Origin: a virus
Lineage: Duplodnaviria > Heunggongvirae > Uroviricota > Caudoviricetes
DNA length: 8,995 nucleotides
IMG/VR virus record: IMGVR_UViG_2609460067_000017
Direction: 5' to 3' (one strand)
Under the pieces are notes generated by a model that ran no database searches, had not been told where the DNA came from, and saw nothing but the letters and a program-made list of their open reading frames with translations. Shown here piece by piece: positions 1,337-8,295 of this stretch. Position numbers and translations under genes: made by a program. The stretch's first letter is position 1, and each line of letters opens with the position of its first letter.

Positions 1337-1567
1337 TTAAGCTGCTTCCGTTTTAGGCAAGCTGTCATCTGGGTTTGGGTAAAGATCCGGTCTAAGATCA
1401 TGAGGGGTCACGCGCCATTCAAGAGCTTCAGATGTGCGCAAAACCTCTTCACCGGGAACCCGTCCTTTGAACCAGAGGCTTACCGTTTGTGGTTTTTTCC
1501 CTAATCGCCGCCCTAACTCGGATTGACTCATTACGGAAAGAATTTTGTCTTGCAGTTGTTTATCCAT
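1337..1567 (-). CDS. Cro/YdaS-like helix-turn-helix regulator
   Basis: 76-aa product MDKQLQDKILSVMSQSELGRRLGKKPQTVSLWFKG... with an HTH signature and a C-terminal LRPD motif typical of YdaS/Cro-like proteins. Strong SD AAGGAG (1573-1578, minus strand) 5 nt upstream of the ATG at 1567. The longer track ORF (to 1603) starts at TTG and would run into the operator region, so the shorter start is preferred. Divergent from the repressor gene. Confidence 0.65.
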   Translation of the reverse strand: MDKQLQDKILSVMSQSELGRRLGKKPQTVSLWFKGRVPGEEVLRTSEALEWRVTPHDLRPDLYPNPDDSLPKTEAA

Positions 1568-1592
1568 ATGGACTCCTTGTGTCCGCGTCATC

Positions 1593-1631
1593 ATTACAAA
1601 CAATAACTGTAATTACAAATTATATTTGCAA
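1593..1631. promoter_or_regulatory. Divergent immunity-region operators (two adjacent 19-21 bp imperfect palindromes sharing the half-site TTACAAAT)
   Basis: ATTACAaacaataacTGTAAT (1593-1613) and TTACAAATtatATTTGCAA (1613-1631) lie between the divergent Cro-like and repressor genes; ATTACAAA occurs as a direct repeat at 1593-1600 and 1612-1619. Confidence 0.45.
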
Positions 1632-1665
1632 TGCTCCCTACAATTAAACCTTGTATCCTTACGGT

Positions 1666-2079
1666 ATGAACACAAAAACGAAAAACATGGCTTTTGCTAG
1701 CCGACTACAACGGATTCTAAAAGACTTAGGCTGGTCTCAATCTGAGTTAGCTCGCCATATTGGGGTTACGGCTCAATCAGTTCAGGCATGGTGTAATGGG
1801 GTAACTCCAAGAAAAGATAAATTAGACAAGCTAGCAAAAGTGACCGGATACCCTGTTCATTTTTTCTTCATGAATGAAGGGGAATATTTGGATGAATCCA
1901 CACTACACCCGGGTAATTACAATCAAGAACTAACCCCGCAAGAACAGGCTCTACTGCAACTATTCAGAGGACTGCCTGAGAGCGAAAAAAATAAATTAAT
2001 CAATGAGCTAAAAGAAAAAAGAGAGCACTTCGATCTACTGCTAAAAGAACTACTTGAAGCCAAAAACCAGACAAAATAG
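1666..2079 (+). CDS. XRE-family HTH transcriptional repressor (cI-like immunity repressor)
   Basis: N-terminal HTH (LGWSQSELARHIGVTAQSVQAWCNG) typical of XRE/cI-type repressors; divergent from the Cro-like gene across an operator-containing intergenic region; same strand as the int-ward early operon, as in lambda. Start is ambiguous (TTG 1651, ATG 1666 or ATG 1687); none has a strong SD, so a leaderless or weakly initiated start is possible. TAG stop at 2077-2079. Confidence 0.7.
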   Translation: MNTKTKNMAFASRLQRILKDLGWSQSELARHIGVTAQSVQAWCNGVTPRKDKLDKLAKVTGYPVHFFFMNEGEYLDESTLHPGNYNQELTPQEQALLQLFRGLPESEKNKLINELKEKREHFDLLLKELLEAKNQTK

Positions 2080-2197
2080 TTCAGTTCAAATTTCCAGGCC
2101 AGCCGCTGCTGGCATGCAACTTTCCCCTAACACAAAAACACCTTTACACAGTGAATATTTTTTTGCCCCTCACTACAAATTATTTTTTAAAAACACA

Positions 2198-2226
2198 TTG
2201 ACCATTACAAATACAAATTGTAAAGT
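2198..2226 (+). promoter_or_regulatory. Candidate pL-like early promoter overlapped by a third operator
   Basis: -35-like TTGACC (2198-2203), 17-nt spacer, -10-like TAAAGT (2221-2226); overlapped by TTACAAATacaAATTGTAA (2206-2224), which shares the TTACAAAT half-site with the two operators at 1593-1631. A partial copy CTACAAATTAT lies at 2173-2183. Confidence 0.4.
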
Positions 2227-2562
2227 CACTTTCATCAACAACGCTTACCCAGCGGCAGTTGTTCAGAAACACGTTCTGACAGCCGGAAAGACGGCACCAA
2301 ATTTTGCGCGTCGGCGCCAACACGGTGACAGAGGGAAAGACTTCACCGGCATATGGCACATGTGTCGAAGCGGTCTGGATGGAAGCGGAGCCTTAACGCG
2401 TTGTCTCCATAGCAGGTAGCCGGAATGTGCAAGCCACAGCCAGGTATGAGCGATTGATTCACCATCAAGGCGATACGGTGTGACCACCAGGGAAGAGTCC
2501 TGGCTACAACACGAGAGCGCACTTCATCGACTCAACTTTGAGCTTTGTCGTTAAATTTTGAA

Positions 2563-2648
2563 ATGGCGGAGTGCGCTCCCGGTTGTGGTGAACAGGTGTT
2601 TAACGGGAACTCCCTGCCCGTTACCCGGTTCGATTCCGGGCGCCCATC
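2563..2648 (+). other. tRNA-like element or fragment (T-arm CCCGG-TTCGATT-CCGGG followed by an acceptor-like CGCCCAT)
   Basis: A perfect T-stem/loop motif at 2624-2640 (GGTTCGATTCC embedded in a 5-bp GC stem) followed by 7 nt and a C. No CCA is encoded and I could not pair a clean 5' acceptor strand (ATGGCGG at 2563-2569 pairs only 5 of 7), so this is a tRNA-like structure or tRNA 3' fragment, not a confident tRNA gene. Confidence 0.2.
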
Positions 2649-2672
2649 ATCAATTTGCTGTGTTTAGTCTTT

Positions 2673-2700
2673 GCCCAGTCCGCACGATGGGCCATTTTTT
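2673..2700 (+). terminator. Possible weak intrinsic terminator (GCCCA-N10-TGGGC followed by CA and T6)
   Basis: 5-bp GC-rich stem at 2673-2677 and 2688-2692, then a T6 run at 2695-2700; about 25 nt downstream of the tRNA-like motif. The loop is long, so strength is uncertain. Confidence 0.25.
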
Positions 2701-2981
2701 CACACAGCCAGGTTTTATCGCTGTGCCTGAGTCCCCAACAGGAGAGGCCAAACCCGCAGCGTGACACCAGGGAAAGACCGGAGGAAGTACCACGCCTGAC
2801 CAGCGTTGACCATGAGCCTGACCAGCTCAAAACAGGAAAGACCAGCCCGGGCCTGACCAGCCCTGTACGGTCGTAATGGAAACATAACGACGCCGGAAAC
2901 GTAACCGGCACCCTTTAGATAGCAAAAGACCCGCACAAGGCGGGCCAGTTACCCCGAACGGCGACCAAACCATTCGGATTT

Positions 2982-3005
2982 ATCACAAGTGACCAAACTT
3001 GTGAT
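2982..3005. repeat. Perfect 9-bp inverted repeat (ATCACAAGT-gaccaa-ACTTGTGAT)
   Basis: Perfect palindromic arms at 2982-2990 and 2997-3005; it overlaps copy 1 of the ATGAGGAAAGACCA motif by 2 nt and lies upstream of the first early ORF. Could be a protein-binding site or an RNA hairpin in the early leader. Confidence 0.5.
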
Positions 3006-3017
3006 GAGGAAAGACCA
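3004..3017 (+). repeat. Copy 1 of conserved motif ATGAGGAAAGACCA (followed by ACG, not ATG)
   Basis: The 13-nt core ATGAGGAAAGACC matches the copies at 3427 and 6602 exactly. Here no ORF follows directly, which may mark a decayed gene start or a recombination joint. Confidence 0.6.
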
Positions 3018-3089
3018 ACGACACTGACGCTATGGAAGCTGATCAATATTCGCTGATCGGCTCTGAGTATACATTACCAAGGAGTCGCT

Positions 3090-3410
3090 ATGGAAGCGCG
3101 CACCATCCCAGTAACACTCTTTATTCATTATGCAACTTCAACTTTCAGCCACGAAAAGCTGCTTGTTGCGACTGTTGATATGTCAAAAAATTTTCCAGAC
3201 AGGTACATCCTTCTGGAAAGCCGCGAAATTGAAATTACCGTTAACCAGCCCGAGCCAATCGACATCATCGGTTTACAGGTCGAGCAACTGCGTGAACAAA
3301 AACAGAAAACAGTCGCCGACGCCCAACAGCGTATTGCTGCTATCGATGACAAAATCCAGCAGTTACTTTGCATCGAATACACGCCAGATACCGATGAGCT
3401 CCCCTACTAA
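3090..3410 (+). CDS. Hypothetical early-operon protein (106 aa, predicted coiled-coil C-terminus)
   Basis: ORF with a strong SD AAGGAG (3077-3082) 7 nt upstream of the ATG at 3090; TAA stop at 3408-3410; C-terminal region rich in Q/E/K heptad-like residues. No recognisable family. Confidence 0.6.
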   Translation: MEARTIPVTLFIHYATSTFSHEKLLVATVDMSKNFPDRYILLESREIEITVNQPEPIDIIGLQVEQLREQKQKTVADAQQRIAAIDDKIQQLLCIEYTPDTDELPY

Positions 3411-3426
3411 AAACCACTGACCTGTA

Positions 3427-3440
3427 ATGAGGAAAGACCA
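3427..3440 (+). repeat. Copy 2 of conserved motif ATGAGGAAAGACCA, immediately 5' of the 738-aa ORF start codon
   Basis: The motif ends at 3440 and the ATG is at 3441; the embedded GAGGA acts as the SD. Confidence 0.7.
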
Positions 3441-5657
3441 ATGACCATTTTTAACGGCTTGTTAGAAGCGAAAAAAGGCGCGCTCAAAAACGGCGCGATC
3501 CCGGCGCTGGCCATCGCCATCGCCGCCCCTAACAAAAAAGTTGCCGAGAACATCATCATCGGCAAATTGTGGGAAGCCTACCCTGACCACGGCGACAACT
3601 ATTTCAAACCTAAAATCTGGGAAGATGCCCCGGGCCAACCGCGCCCAGGCGTCGGTGAGTTTGATGAGACGTTTGCCACAGAACACAGTTTTGATGGCGA
3701 AAAATGGGTAGTTAACACTCCTGTTGATTCAGATTGCAGTTCAGCAGATATCTCACAGGTTAGCGACCTGATGAAACTGCCGGCTCGTGAACGATTCGCC
3801 GCCGTTCTGCTGTTCAGCCACGACGCCAACGAAGTCGACAGTGAATTGCTTGTGCAGACGCGTGAATACCTGGAGATGCTCGATAACAGTGATACTGACA
3901 GTGAGGATGAGGTTGACGCGTTTAACCGCATCGTTCTTGATGCCATGGTGGCGTGTAAGCCCATCGAGTACATGCATATTGCTGGATTGAATAATCTGGT
4001 ACATGCAATTTTGGCAAGTTGCGATACCCAGGAACAAAACCCGACCAGTTGGACTATCTCCAAATTTATAAAAAAATGGGTAGAGAATCCCGGTAAACGA
4101 GATGAAATGCTGCCGGAGGTAAAACCAGAAACAGCATCCGCACGTCCTTACAAACAGACTCACGCCACTCTGGATCGTGAAATTGCCTGCGCCCTGTTAC
4201 CTGTTGCCCCGGAAAAAATCACCCCCAGCATCCTGAAAGCGGCAGACGAAATAATCAGTCAGGACAGGGAAGATTTTAAACGCTGGTCAATGGCCTTGCG
4301 CACAACGGATCAGATCCTTGCCTATGACCGCGCATCAGTATTCGGTGTTATTCAGAGCGCCCCCGCAAAAGACACGTACCACTTCCCACAATCCCTGCGC
4401 AGTCACATCGACAACTGGCTGCAAGCTAACGGGCAGCGTGATGCAAATGCTGTTGAAGAGAAGCCAAAGGAAGCAGCACCCAAGGATGATGTAAAAGTCA
4501 CCAACCACGGCGGCGGACGATTCTCAATTGATGGGATGATGTCAGAAACACCCTCAAATCAGGGCGAAAAAAGCGAAGCTGCAAATGCTGGAGAACGTAG
4601 TTTGCAGCAGTTGCGTGAGCAGTTTGTCACGCCTCGCCATGTGTATGACGTACCTGAAAATAACGCCGTATCACAGAGGGAACCTGCAGCTATTACCCTG
4701 GCAGAAGAGACTCCTCCACAAGAACAACTTAGCGAGCAGGTAAAGGATCTGGTGCAGAACGTTGACGCGCTGGTTGAGCGGATCCATGCCGAAGAGCACA
4801 AGCGGCAGAATGCAATCTCAGCTATCGAAACGGAGTTAAAGGACTCAGATGACACGGATAACCTGGCATTGTGGAAGAACGTATTCAAAACCGATGAGCG
4901 CTTCACCAGTGCTTTCTCTCAGAATGGCGGCGGCACATCCATCAACGGCACTTATATAGCGATGAAAGCGACTCGCGAATTTGGGCCATTTGGTATTGGC
5001 TGGGGGGTAGAGGTGCTGGAGGAGCGCTTTGATAAAGGCGCACCAATAGTTCGCAAAAAACAGGTTGGTGAAAAAATAGAATGGGATCTGATTCAAGACG
5101 GTGTTGGCGGGTACCTATGTGAAATGCACCACACCATGAAAGTGAGAGTCTGGTACATATTGAATGGGGTACGCGGTGAGTCCGAGGCTTACGGATGCAC
5201 ACCTTATATCTACGACACTAAATACGGACCAACAAGCGACGGCGAAGCACCGAAGAAATCCTGGACGGATGCTGTTAAGAAAGCGCTATCCCCTCTCGGA
5301 TTCAGCGCCGATATTTTCATGGGCCTGTACGACAATCCGGAATACCGCCAGAGGAATAAAGCTGAGTTTGATATCAAGAATGCCAGCGAGAATGCGGAAG
5401 ATGCTACCCGTCTGCGTAAGGAACTGGATGAGAAGCTTATCAACGTTGCCAATACGCTGGCCGCCGCGGTAACCGCCAACGAAGTAAACAAGGTATTTGG
5501 CCTCATCGCCCGCGAAGTGGATGTACACAGGAAAGCAGCGGAAACCAAAGGCGATAAAGAATATTCATCGTATCTGGGATCACGTCTGCGCCGTATCACC
5601 GACATTAAAACTGAACGCCTCGCCGCCCTTACCGCTGCACAGGAGCAAACAGCATGA
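3441..5657 (+). CDS. Large prophage protein with a C-terminal Rad52-family single-strand annealing (SSAP/Sak-like) domain fused to an uncharacterised ~330-aa N-terminal domain and a charged low-complexity linker
   Basis: Uninterrupted 738-aa ORF. Residues ~470-640 (nt ~4850-5360) carry recalled Rad52 signatures: GGG...YI...FGxxGW (FSQNGGGTSINGTYIAMKATREFGPFGIGWG versus human RAD52 [29 protein letters not shown]) and the helix K..WTDAVKKAL.PLGF......GLYDNPEY (versus [28 protein letters not shown]). The N-terminal ~330 aa have no family I recognise. The TGA stop overlaps the next gene's ATG (ATGA at 5654-5657). Confidence 0.8.
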   Translation: MTIFNGLLEAKKGALKNGAIPALAIAIAAPNKKVAENIIIGKLWEAYPDHGDNYFKPKIWEDAPGQPRPGVGEFDETFATEHSFDGEKWVVNTPVDSDCSSADISQVSDLMKLPARERFAAVLLFSHDANEVDSELLVQTREYLEMLDNSDTDSEDEVDAFNRIVLDAMVACKPIEYMHIAGLNNLVHAILASCDTQEQNPTSWTISKFIKKWVENPGKRDEMLPEVKPETASARPYKQTHATLDREIACALLPVAPEKITPSILKAADEIISQDREDFKRWSMALRTTDQILAYDRASVFGVIQSAPAKDTYHFPQSLRSHIDNWLQANGQRDANAVEEKPKEAAPKDDVKVTNHGGGRFSIDGMMSETPSNQGEKSEAANAGERSLQQLREQFVTPRHVYDVPENNAVSQREPAAITLAEETPPQEQLSEQVKDLVQNVDALVERIHAEEHKRQNAISAIETELKDSDDTDNLALWKNVFKTDERFTSAFSQNGGGTSINGTYIAMKATREFGPFGIGWGVEVLEERFDKGAPIVRKKQVGEKIEWDLIQDGVGGYLCEMHHTMKVRVWYILNGVRGESEAYGCTPYIYDTKYGPTSDGEAPKKSWTDAVKKALSPLGFSADIFMGLYDNPEYRQRNKAEFDIKNASENAEDATRLRKELDEKLINVANTLAAAVTANEVNKVFGLIAREVDVHRKAAETKGDKEYSSYLGSRLRRITDIKTERLAALTAAQEQTA

Positions 5658-6454: not shown

Positions 6455-6679
6455 ATGCTGCGATGGCAACCGGGAGCAACTCTGCTCTCCGCATTTGATA
6501 TCAAAATTGGTCGACTGTCGGCCAGCGTCAGGAAACAGACTTTGACCGAGTCTGATATTGCCCGTGCCTGCCAGAAGGCAGATGACGCAATAAGCTACAT
6601 AATGAGGAAAGACCATGAAAAGCGATCACGACATAATCACCAGAGAAGAAATGGTCGAGCTGACGGGAAGCCCACTTAA
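6455..6679 (+). CDS. Hypothetical small basic protein (74 aa from the ATG at 6455)
   Basis: SD GGAGGA (6445-6450) precedes the ATG at 6455; overlaps the start of the next ORF by 65 nt in a different frame. The C-terminus is very basic. Coding status is uncertain. Confidence 0.35.
   Translation: MLRWQPGATLLSAFDIKIGRLSASVRKQTLTESDIARACQKADDAISYIMRKDHEKRSRHNHQRRNGRADGKPT
6602..6614 (+). repeat. Copy 3 of conserved motif ATGAGGAAAGACC, immediately 5' of the excisionase-like ORF start codon
   Basis: The motif ends at 6614 and the ATG is at 6615; identical 13-mer to the copies at 3004 and 3427. Confidence 0.7.
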
Positions 6680-7993: not shown

Positions 7994-8080
7994 TGGTACC
8001 CGGAGCGGGACTTGAACCCGCACAGCGCGAACGCCGAGGGATTTTAAATCCCTTGTGTCTACCGATTCCACCATCCGGGC
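7994..8080 (-). tRNA. leuZ: tRNA-Leu (anticodon UAA), 87 nt including CCA
   Basis: The reverse complement reads GCCCGGATGGTGGAATCGGTAGACACAAGGGATTTAAAATCCCTCGGCGTTCGCGCTGTGCGGGTTCAAGTCCCGCTCCGGGTACCA: class II tRNA with a long variable arm, anticodon loop TTTAAAA and T-loop GGTTCAAGTCC; matches E. coli leuZ by recall. Confidence 0.95.
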
Positions 8081-8092
8081 TCGGGAAAAAAG

Positions 8093-8166
8093 TGGAGGCG
8101 CGTTCCGGAGTCGAACCGGACTAGACGGATTTGCAATCCGCTACATAACCGCTTTGTTAACGCGCC
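8093..8166 (-). tRNA. cysT: tRNA-Cys (anticodon GCA), 74 nt including CCA
   Basis: The reverse complement reads GGCGCGTTAACAAAGCGGTTATGTAGCGGATTGCAAATCCGTCTAGTCCGGTTCGACTCCGGAACGCGCCTCCA; matches E. coli cysT by recall. Confidence 0.95.
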
Positions 8167-8219
8167 AAATTCTTCAGGCCTTTCAGCCAGACATCCGCTG
8201 ACGCCGATGCCTTTTAAAC

Positions 8220-8295
<76 letters not shown>

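Follow-up and report, generated by a model that had tools for sequence, protein, structure and literature searches.

Between the cI-like repressor gene and the first early-left gene of a lambdoid prophage of Escherichia coli, we found a conserved structured RNA of ~240 nt that lies in a 1010-bp interval (positions 2080-3089) of an 8,995-nt stretch of DNA, hereafter the window (IMG/VR record IMGVR_UViG_2609460067_000017). The interval has no conserved open reading frame (ORF) and its RNA structure covaries among relatives, which bears out a preliminary description of this DNA that had taken the region for non-coding and suggested that it encodes a structured RNA. Homologues of the ~240-nt RNA, here called the core RNA, are present in more than 150 phage and prophage loci. 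On balance, and with modest confidence, we read the interval as a repressor-controlled, polycistronic non-coding RNA locus that would be driven by a pL-like promoter, would give rise to processed, trans-acting RNAs and would serve at the same time as an attenuating leader of the early-left operon. The parts of the core RNA are the following.

2347-2588, + strand: conserved structured RNA, delimited by alignments, covariation and a covariance model
2347-2503, + strand: core of the structured RNA, with helices P1 (2347-2367), P4 (2460-2480) and P5 (2487-2503)
2369-2375, + strand: invariant AGCGGUC
2415-2433, + strand: invariant 19-mer GGUAGCCGGAAUGUGCAAG
2506-2525 paired with 2568-2586, + strand: long closing stem D2

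In a sensitive search of phage genomes, positions 2347-2518 were 70-77% identical to unannotated DNA in unrelated phages, namely the Uetakeviruses SPN1S, Tyrion and PAT1, Klebsiella phages and the P1-like D6 and SJ46. An alignment of eight phage homologues showed invariant blocks between variable, length-polymorphic hairpins, and the exact 19-mer GGTAGCCGGAATGTGCAAG taken from it matched at least 120 IMG/VR contigs, with 105 distinct core sequences among the matches listed. When a nine-helix consensus was applied to 80 distinct homologues, 94.8% of the cells were paired and 19 pairs were changed on both sides; pairing fell to 31-42% in a control in which the 3' partners were slid by 1-3 columns. 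The D2 stem differs in sequence between subfamilies and keeps its complementarity. A covariance model built from 50 diverse members (R1, with rough E-values) scored 139 bits (E 5e-47) at 2336-2521 of the window and 135-183 bits in eight relatives, with one copy per locus. Since the homologues were seeded with exact patterns and come from the matches listed, the invariance of the blocks is partly there by construction. A relaxed pattern, in which the second half of the 19-mer was left unconstrained, lifts this bias for that half; it placed the element in 23 representative species, and the 19-mer was identical in 22 of them. Coding is excluded for the core because a 1-nt indel separates invariant blocks (TCG-AAGCGG against TCGTTAGCGG). 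GCACAU in the P1 loop and 3' stem (2351-2362) is perfectly complementary to AUGUGC within the 19-mer (2425-2430). This could reflect a pseudoknot or an alternative fold, and covariation is uninformative here as both sides are invariant.

No curated family matches the core RNA. Run in E-value mode on the window and on 2230-2720, Rfam 15 gave no match on it, and gathering mode on 12 related loci returned tRNAs, C4, isrK and int-alpA elsewhere and nothing on the core. The phage RNA families of Rfam 15 (C4, isrK, ROOL, GOLLD, AgvB, AsxR, STnc100 and others) did not match 2233-2590. No description of this RNA or of its invariant sequence came up in searches of published full text, an absence that is not proof. 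The RNA is apparently undescribed; its kind, a structured non-coding or leader RNA of phages, is already known. The prophage small RNAs (sRNAs) PasA-D and HnrS were rejected as its identity, as they belong to late-gene regions and do not match in sequence. A CsrA sponge was rejected as well: 857 nt contain 20 GGA, against a window mean of 15.2 +/- 5.0, which is no enrichment.

The commonest subfamily of the core RNA occurs in 165 GenBank phage records (among them mEp460, cdtI, Ayreon, Stx2a_1447, Stx2a_WGPS2 and Stx2c-converting phages) and in 1833 of the 5426 complete E. coli genomes. Single genomes have as many as four copies, and plasmids account for 554 of the places. In 30 listed rows spread over the E. 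coli matches, the annotation underneath was mostly 'none', with tRNA-Arg four times and 'phage tail protein' and 'hypothetical protein' once each. Among the hits of the relaxed pattern, those with a name all belong to Enterobacterales (Escherichia, Klebsiella, Citrobacter, Kosakonia, Enterobacter, Erwinia and others), and one more, a short contig assembled from a metagenome, carries the label Bacillota. In mEp460_036/037 and cdtI gp40 (locus L156), antisense 'hypothetical proteins' are annotated over RNA modules and are probably spurious.

Most commonly the core RNA is encoded directly 3' of a cI-type repressor gene and 5' of co-oriented early genes, as in the window, and this position recurs in the lineages of BUCT708, mEp460 (L016) and Stx2a_1447. 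The repressors behind which it sits elsewhere have 218-239 aa, with helix-turn-helix (HTH) and S24 peptidase domains in L016. In these other cI-adjacent lineages no N is annotated, and neither the repressor nor the early genes are related to their counterparts in the window. Operator-bearing promoters precede the RNA in several lineages, and its distance from the promoter ranges from ~45 to 120 nt across loci. In 98 loci the RNA and the closest ORF called 3' of it share a strand; in another 36 their strands differ, and some of these ORF calls are spurious. In the Uetakeviruses the terminase and portal genes are separated by a counter-oriented moron with the RNA at its head, behind a promoter with a ATTACCTTnnAGGTAAT palindrome, and in P1-like phages it lies inside a tRNA cluster. 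A tRNA gene is adjacent in 44 of 128 loci, always on the strand of the core and at a fixed distance: tRNA-Arg(UCU) begins at +165 from the 19-mer, and tRNA-Met/Ile(CAT) is at -170, ending 24 nt before the core. In the SfV/mEp460-like lineage, isrK and C4 antisense RNA genes score above the Rfam gathering threshold (L016, 2538-2726, - strand; L020, 5052-5240, + strand), ~2.2 kb from the core RNA on the other side of the immunity region.

The order of modules around the core is permuted between phages. The D2-type stem is downstream of the core in the window and upstream in PAT1, Tyrion and ST512-KPC3phi13.3; in these three phages (L008, L005 and L007, respectively) the stem module has the form ..GCGCnCUUCA...GUCGUUAAAU...GGAGUGCGC.. 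A conserved module of ~60 nt, CCCAGACGATATCTGAGTGGCTnAAAAAACAGATGGGnGCCGGTGGAATCCCGGCAC, was seen inside the core in L012/L013 and downstream of it in L006 and L137, and this shifting position suggests a wider set of shuffled RNA modules. At the end of the units of the core RNA, a short single-stranded segment precedes an intrinsic terminator, and these seed-plus-terminator modules differ between phages.

Of the 5426 complete E. coli genomes, 475 contain the 1010-bp interval, 416 of them with an identity of at least 99%, and none of the 475 has a RefSeq annotation under it. The largest ORFs between 2079 and 3090 (2054-2419, + strand, TTG start, 121 aa; 2621-2911, - strand, 96 aa) are short and unconserved. 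For the coding comparison we used stop-free stretches of at least 35 aa in seven relatives and required no start codon. None of the ORFs of the interval is kept in the 72%-identical relatives of the BUCT708 type (compared over 2233-3120), where the indels are not multiples of three and the hairpins are kept and the reading frames are not. A 42-aa basic ORF of the BUCT708-type phages was discarded, as its start codon is missing in the window and the ORF overlies a covarying hairpin. In E. coli TUM13936, two ORFs lie on a 680-bp insertion at the equivalent of ~2277-2300 (L153, 1616-2293; 124 aa on the + strand and 72 aa on the - strand) that replaces the GAAAGA-loop hairpin of the 5' leader; the other 790 bp of the interval are ORF-free and 94.8% identical. 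This spot of the leader tolerates cargo.

The preliminary description had named a decayed gene as another possibility, to be recognised by an intact ORF across the interval in homologous prophages. No relative carries one, and gene-junction scars are confined to the last ~90 nt. It had further assigned the interval to the slot of rexAB/N. The rexAB slot, between cI and pL, has ~118 bp here, and the interval takes the N/nutL slot 3' of pL. Protein genes of the rexAB or sieB type are absent between cI and the early-left genes, as is any conserved ORF. The individual sequence features that had been listed were all recovered at the same positions. The label 'GC-rich' holds only relative to the immunity region (0.52-0.56 against 0.36-0.44) and not against the ~0.50 found elsewhere.

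Upstream of the core RNA are the following elements.

2098-2113, + strand: hairpin GCCAGC-cgct-GCTGGC, 19 nt past the cI stop and without a U-tract
2198-2226, + strand: pL-like promoter TTGACC-17-TAAAGT, overlapped by the operator TTACAAATACAAATTGTAA at 2205-2223
2233-2346, + strand: 5' leader with five small hairpins, from the fold of an alignment of seven relatives
2237-2263; 2264-2278; 2282-2295 (GCCG-GAAAGA-CGGC); 2306-2317 (GCGC-GUCG-GCGC); 2331-2344 (loop GGGAAAGAC), + strand: the five hairpins of the 5' leader

The promoter is the single sigma-70-like match within 1500-3500, where 2.9 were expected, so that by itself the match is not above chance. Its status is supported because an operator overlaps it and because equivalent promoters exist in two other immunity types. 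The operator, TTACAA-N7-TTGTAA, has two further copies in the cI/cro intergenic region (1594-1612 and 1613-1631), and in BUCT708 and TUM13936 promoters of other sequence are equally far from CATCAAC, the conserved start of the leader. The hairpin at 2098-2113 may be the 3' end or a stabiliser of the cI transcript. Five pairs of the 5' leader hairpins show double compensatory change among the seven relatives. In the hairpin at 2306-2317 the stem GCGC/GCGC becomes UCGG/CCGA in relatives with the loop GUCG kept, and that at 2282-2295 gains an extra C-G pair. A GAAAGA loop is displayed by three hairpins of the interval (2282-2295, 2331-2344 and 2767-2781).

Downstream of the core RNA, a tRNA-like element is followed by a segment related to the sRNA RprA.

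2586-2652, + strand: tRNA-like element with an acceptor-like stem, an anticodon-like arm and a canonical T-arm in the predicted fold, without D-arm or CCA
2624-2640, + strand: T-arm CCCGGTTCGATTCCGGG
2657-2672, + strand: RprA-like 16-nt seed GCUGUGUUUAGUCUUU
2673-2700, + strand: intrinsic terminator, a hairpin with a T6 run, from a terminator scan

The tRNA-like motif that had been pointed out in the preliminary description is real: the T-arm is part of a tRNA-like fold that occupies the position of tRNA-Arg(UCU) in homologous elements. In more than 25 relatives a genuine tRNA-Arg(UCU) starts at the same junction, GUUGU/GG, which is followed either by this tRNA or by one of at least five different tRNA-like modules. 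The module of E2348/69 has an 8-bp acceptor stem, D- and T-arms, an encoded CCA and an expanded anticodon region, and PGAP labels it a 113-nt pseudogenic tRNA ('pseudogenic tRNA-Gly'; L129, 3730-3842). ARAGORN found only three host tRNAs in the window, at 7994-8295, and nothing at 2586-2652. The covariance search proposed for this area gave sub-gathering hits to tRNA-Sec and RprA near the element, and no tRNA model passed; the best hit of the tRNA clan was tRNA-Sec at 2568-2648, with 19.3 bits against a gathering score of 47.

The terminator-like hairpin with its T6 run also proved real, as the terminator scan recovered it. Window positions 2655-2704 are 84% identical over 50 nt to the annotated 3' end of rprA, which is present in 5424 of the 5426 E. 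coli genomes; of the query 2640-2705, only query positions 16-65 align. RprA (RF00034) is the sole notable Rfam hit (37.4 bits, below the gathering score of 70; E 0.099 with the window and 0.0054 with the sub-region), and its alignment places the 5' part, at low posterior probability, over the T-arm of the tRNA-like element. As the 5' stem-loops of RprA are absent, we regard 2655-2704 as paralogous to the RprA 3' end rather than as an rprA gene; it is a form of a known sRNA that is new and carried by phages. No relevant RprA-like phage RNA turned up in published full text. The segment GCUGUGUGUAGUCUU is invariant in 19 distinct loci, where it is joined to at least four different terminator stems, a conservation pattern that looks like that of an sRNA seed. 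RNase E cleaves host RprA, which yields a shorter 3' form (PMC6202311). GUCUUU of the RprA-like seed is complementary, over 6-7 nt, to the AAAGAC core of the GGAAAGAC cassettes described below; a self-regulatory link of this kind is possible and too weak to claim. The short 3' form of RprA reportedly keeps regulatory activity.

The remainder of the interval is an untranslated stretch that leads up to the first gene.

2703-3089, + strand: distal leader, with hairpins at 2703-2725, 2767-2781 (GAAAGA loop), 2930-2944 and 2982-3005 (loop GACCAAA)

It folds better than its shuffles (z = -3.09), and 11 pairs show double compensatory change in the alignment of relatives. The perfect 9-bp palindrome at 2982-3005 has three stem sequences among the relatives with a conserved GACCAAA loop. 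CGGCUCU at 3058-3064 pairs with the Shine-Dalgarno (SD) region of the first gene, GGAGUCG at 3081-3087, forming an anti-SD stem that is kept in 8/8 relatives; the 22-nt block 3053-3074 hardly varies among relatives whose identity is otherwise 72%. The distal leader also holds short repeats, with GCCTGACCAGC three times within 2794-2861 (at 2794, 2816 and 2851). There are five matches to TGACCAGC against 0.28 expected, and nine to GGAAAGAC in the window against 0.26 expected. Three of the GGAAAGAC copies are real ribosome-binding-site (RBS) cassettes of phage genes, of the TAATGAGGAAAGACCAATG type, and five in the leader have no start codon. A stop/start junction cassette, TAATGAGGAAAGACC(A)ATG, recurs in front of several phage genes (3420-3445, 6598-6617 and 762-775 on the - strand). 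The start-less cassette at 3002-3020 is a copy of the gene junction 3420-3445 in which ATG has become ACG, and CGCTATGGAAGC is duplicated, at 3028 and 3086. These gene-junction scars are confined to the last ~90 nt of the leader (~3000-3090). Positions 2779-2810 are matched 32/32 by a type I-E CRISPR spacer of E. coli 702/18 (also in 23CRST013), with a functional ATG protospacer-adjacent motif adjoining on the - strand (CAT at 2811-2813 on the + strand).

The prophage is integrated beside the leuZ-cysT-glyW tRNA genes. The genes that flank the interval are these.

1651/1687-2079, + strand: cI-like HTH repressor gene
3090-3410, + strand: first early-left gene, 106 aa, phrog_2479
3441-5657, + strand: exonuclease gene, 738 aa, next after the 106-aa gene

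On the + strand the early-left operon continues with a Gp157-family protein, small ORFs, DUF4224 and the integrase, and Cro-like and YdaT/CII-like genes diverge on the - strand. From this gene order (cI-like repressor, interval, early-left operon), the interval corresponds to the pL-N region of lambda. Searches for an N-like protein in Pfam, in PHROGs (early ORFs) and by a scan for arginine-richness over all ORFs in 25 kb found none. An arginine-rich N-terminus read from TTG 6425 was rejected as N-like, as the ORF really starts at ATG 6455. This 74-aa ORF (6455-6679, + strand; RBS GGAGGA, 7 nt, ATG) matches phrog_27062 with E 1e-32, is absent from the RefSeq annotation, and overlaps the DUF4224 gene with its 3' end in another frame.

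According to the reading that we favour, transcription from pL would start at ~2233 and give a precursor of ~470 nt that mostly ends at the terminator at 2700. The precursor would comprise three modules: the ~240-nt structured RNA (2347-2588), which represents a widespread unannotated family of enterobacterial temperate phages; the tRNA-like element (2586-2652), most likely an RNase P/RNase E processing signal that separates the modules; and an sRNA of ~45-50 nt at the 3' end, most likely bound by Hfq and acting on mRNAs recognised by the 3' part of RprA. The released RNAs would act in trans, and the invariant unpaired segments of the core suggest binding to a conserved host macromolecule. Polymerases that read through would cross the structured leader, whose last stem may occlude the RBS of the first gene, so that early-left expression would be throttled. 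We favour a processed, trans-acting locus because the modules are exchanged independently between phages, because real tRNAs, which must be excised, hold the same slot, and because the terminal seed-plus-terminator modules resemble Hfq sRNAs that require termination there. The exchange of tRNA or tRNA-like modules and of seed-plus-terminator modules is the pattern that separately functioning RNA products would be expected to leave.

Several points weigh against this reading. The scheme from pL transcription through the efficiency of termination to processing is predicted from motifs and comparison, and the core RNA has no known partner or activity. No site complementary to the RprA-like seed with up to three mismatches was found in 25 kb of the prophage. 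The tRNA-like element is missing in the BUCT708 type, the closest diverged relatives, so that it may be a tRNA in decay and not a processing signal under selection. No promoter-like site was found 3' of the terminator at 2700 and before the early genes, which therefore depend on read-through, and such dependence fits cis antitermination at least as well.

Cis antitermination is a less probable account of the core RNA and the main rival. The core would be a put-like element that allows passage of the terminator at 2700 and of Rho-dependent sites in the 860-nt leader, in place of N and nut. At least three lambdoid lineages whose repressors are unrelated have it in the nutL/putL slot, directly behind pL; no N-like gene came up in the protein searches described above; a terminator stands between the core and the co-oriented early genes with no promoter-like site between them; the nearest downstream ORF is more often on the same strand (98 loci against 36); and contact with a conserved surface of RNA polymerase would be in keeping with the invariance of unpaired segments, the 19-mer being the same in 22 of 23 species. 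The element is, however, single in each prophage, with no copy in the pR operon, unlike putL/putR, and has no convincing similarity to HK022 putL. It is also found in the tRNA clusters of P1-like phages and in Uetakevirus morons, and its distance from the promoter is variable (~45-120 nt). An antiterminator upstream would, moreover, defeat the formation of 3' ends at the conserved seed-plus-terminator modules, and the real tRNA genes that follow the core point to processed products. Trans-acting and antiterminator roles are compatible with each other.

It seems improbable to us that the interval is what remains of a phage tRNA cassette, its conserved 5' leader, with an RNA that serves only to express or mature the neighbouring tRNA and is a relic in this prophage, where the tRNA has decayed. 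It would account for the tRNA-Arg(UCU) or tRNA-Met/Ile(CAT) that abuts the element in 44 of 128 loci, for the tRNA fragments and T-loop-like hairpins within variable parts of several relatives, and for the failure of the window's tRNA-like element with tRNA models. It does not fit the other 84 loci, which have no tRNA and keep the core with its near-invariant blocks and compensatory changes, nor the conservation of the window sequence at 99% or more in 416 E. coli genomes and of the family in 1833 of 5426. We give still less credence, very little indeed, to decayed protein genes (an analogue of N, rex or sieB) or an element acting at the DNA level, such as a recombination site or origin. The five start-less RBS-like cassettes, the mutated junction copy at 3002-3020, the CGCTATGGAAGC duplication and the moron in the leader of one relative (TUM13936) could be read in this way. 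Against it, the relatives share no ORF, indels between conserved blocks are not multiples of three, conservation tracks base pairing on one strand with a fixed orientation relative to tRNAs, and the junction scars are limited to ~3000-3090.

More tentatively than the favoured reading of a processed, trans-acting locus, we raise the possibility that the core is the first representative of a class of phage regulatory RNAs that has yet to be described and that would occupy the N/nut slot and control the early lytic programme without a phage protein. It might do so by making RNA polymerase resistant to terminators or by capturing a conserved host factor. Its hosts would be lambdoid phages without a recognisable N, including Stx2a- and Stx2c-converting phages and a common prophage of ST131, and it would move between phages as a cassette in which tRNAs or tRNA-like elements serve as punctuation and the Hfq-sRNA heads can be exchanged, one of these heads being a mimic of RprA. 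If our reading of the interval is right, an unannotated, strongly conserved structured RNA stands at the start of the lytic programme in about one third of complete E. coli genomes, in P1-like phage-plasmids and in several Shiga-toxin phages, at a spot that genome annotations leave blank or cover with spurious 'hypothetical proteins'. This would bear on how lambdoid phages without N or put pass terminators early. A phage-borne mimic of RprA would be a possible route for induced prophages to rewire Hfq networks, and the arrangement would point to phage non-coding RNAs being built from interchangeable modules with tRNA-like elements between them.

Among known systems, lambda nutL offers a possible parallel to the 5' leader, in that the boxB-like hairpin at 2282-2295, ~50 nt from the predicted start, stands where boxB would be and has a purine-rich GAAA-type loop. 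Unlike boxB its loop has six nucleotides and not five, there is no boxA consensus, and the GAAAGA loop motif recurs as the ordinary RBS cassette of the phage. The put sites of HK022 have ~70 nt and two stem-loops and are present in both early operons (PMC9378689). Like put, the core is a structured RNA directly 3' of pL, with no N gene found, upstream of terminators and early genes. It differs in its size (~240 nt, about three times larger), in having at least five helices and in being present also in non-lambdoid phages next to tRNAs. A second copy of the core RNA was absent from the 25 kb that span both early operons, the pR operon included. We rejected HK022 putL as a relative: a comparison of the HK022 pL-nun interval revealed only a 9-nt coincidence, CAUGCGUCG, within a different architecture, and model R1 had no match on the HK022 locus.

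RprA, an Hfq-dependent sRNA of the Enterobacteriaceae, shares with the window the single-stranded UGCUGUGUnUAGUCUUUGCC and a near-identical terminator hairpin with a U-tract. The module of the window lacks the 5' two-thirds of RprA, with both 5' stem-loops and the rpoS-pairing region that this 5' part includes. It would be the 3' end of a long pL transcript and not a stand-alone gene under Rcs control, and it is borne by phages, in which it is joined to other terminator stems in relatives. The P4 CI RNA and the P1/P7 C4 RNA are phage RNAs matured by RNase P, and transcripts punctuated by tRNAs are also known. The tRNA-like fold in the leader could define RNA ends through RNase P in the same way; the window differs in that it has no Rfam match to C4 or isrK, and no antisense target was found in the prophage. 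ROOL and GOLLD, both in Rfam, are large structured phage RNAs that are often encoded next to tRNAs. Like them, the core is an ornate, conserved, phage-borne RNA that frequently adjoins tRNA genes; unlike them, it has no Rfam match, is smaller (~240 nt), belongs by its named hits to Enterobacterales, and is typically encoded in a repressor-controlled early leader.

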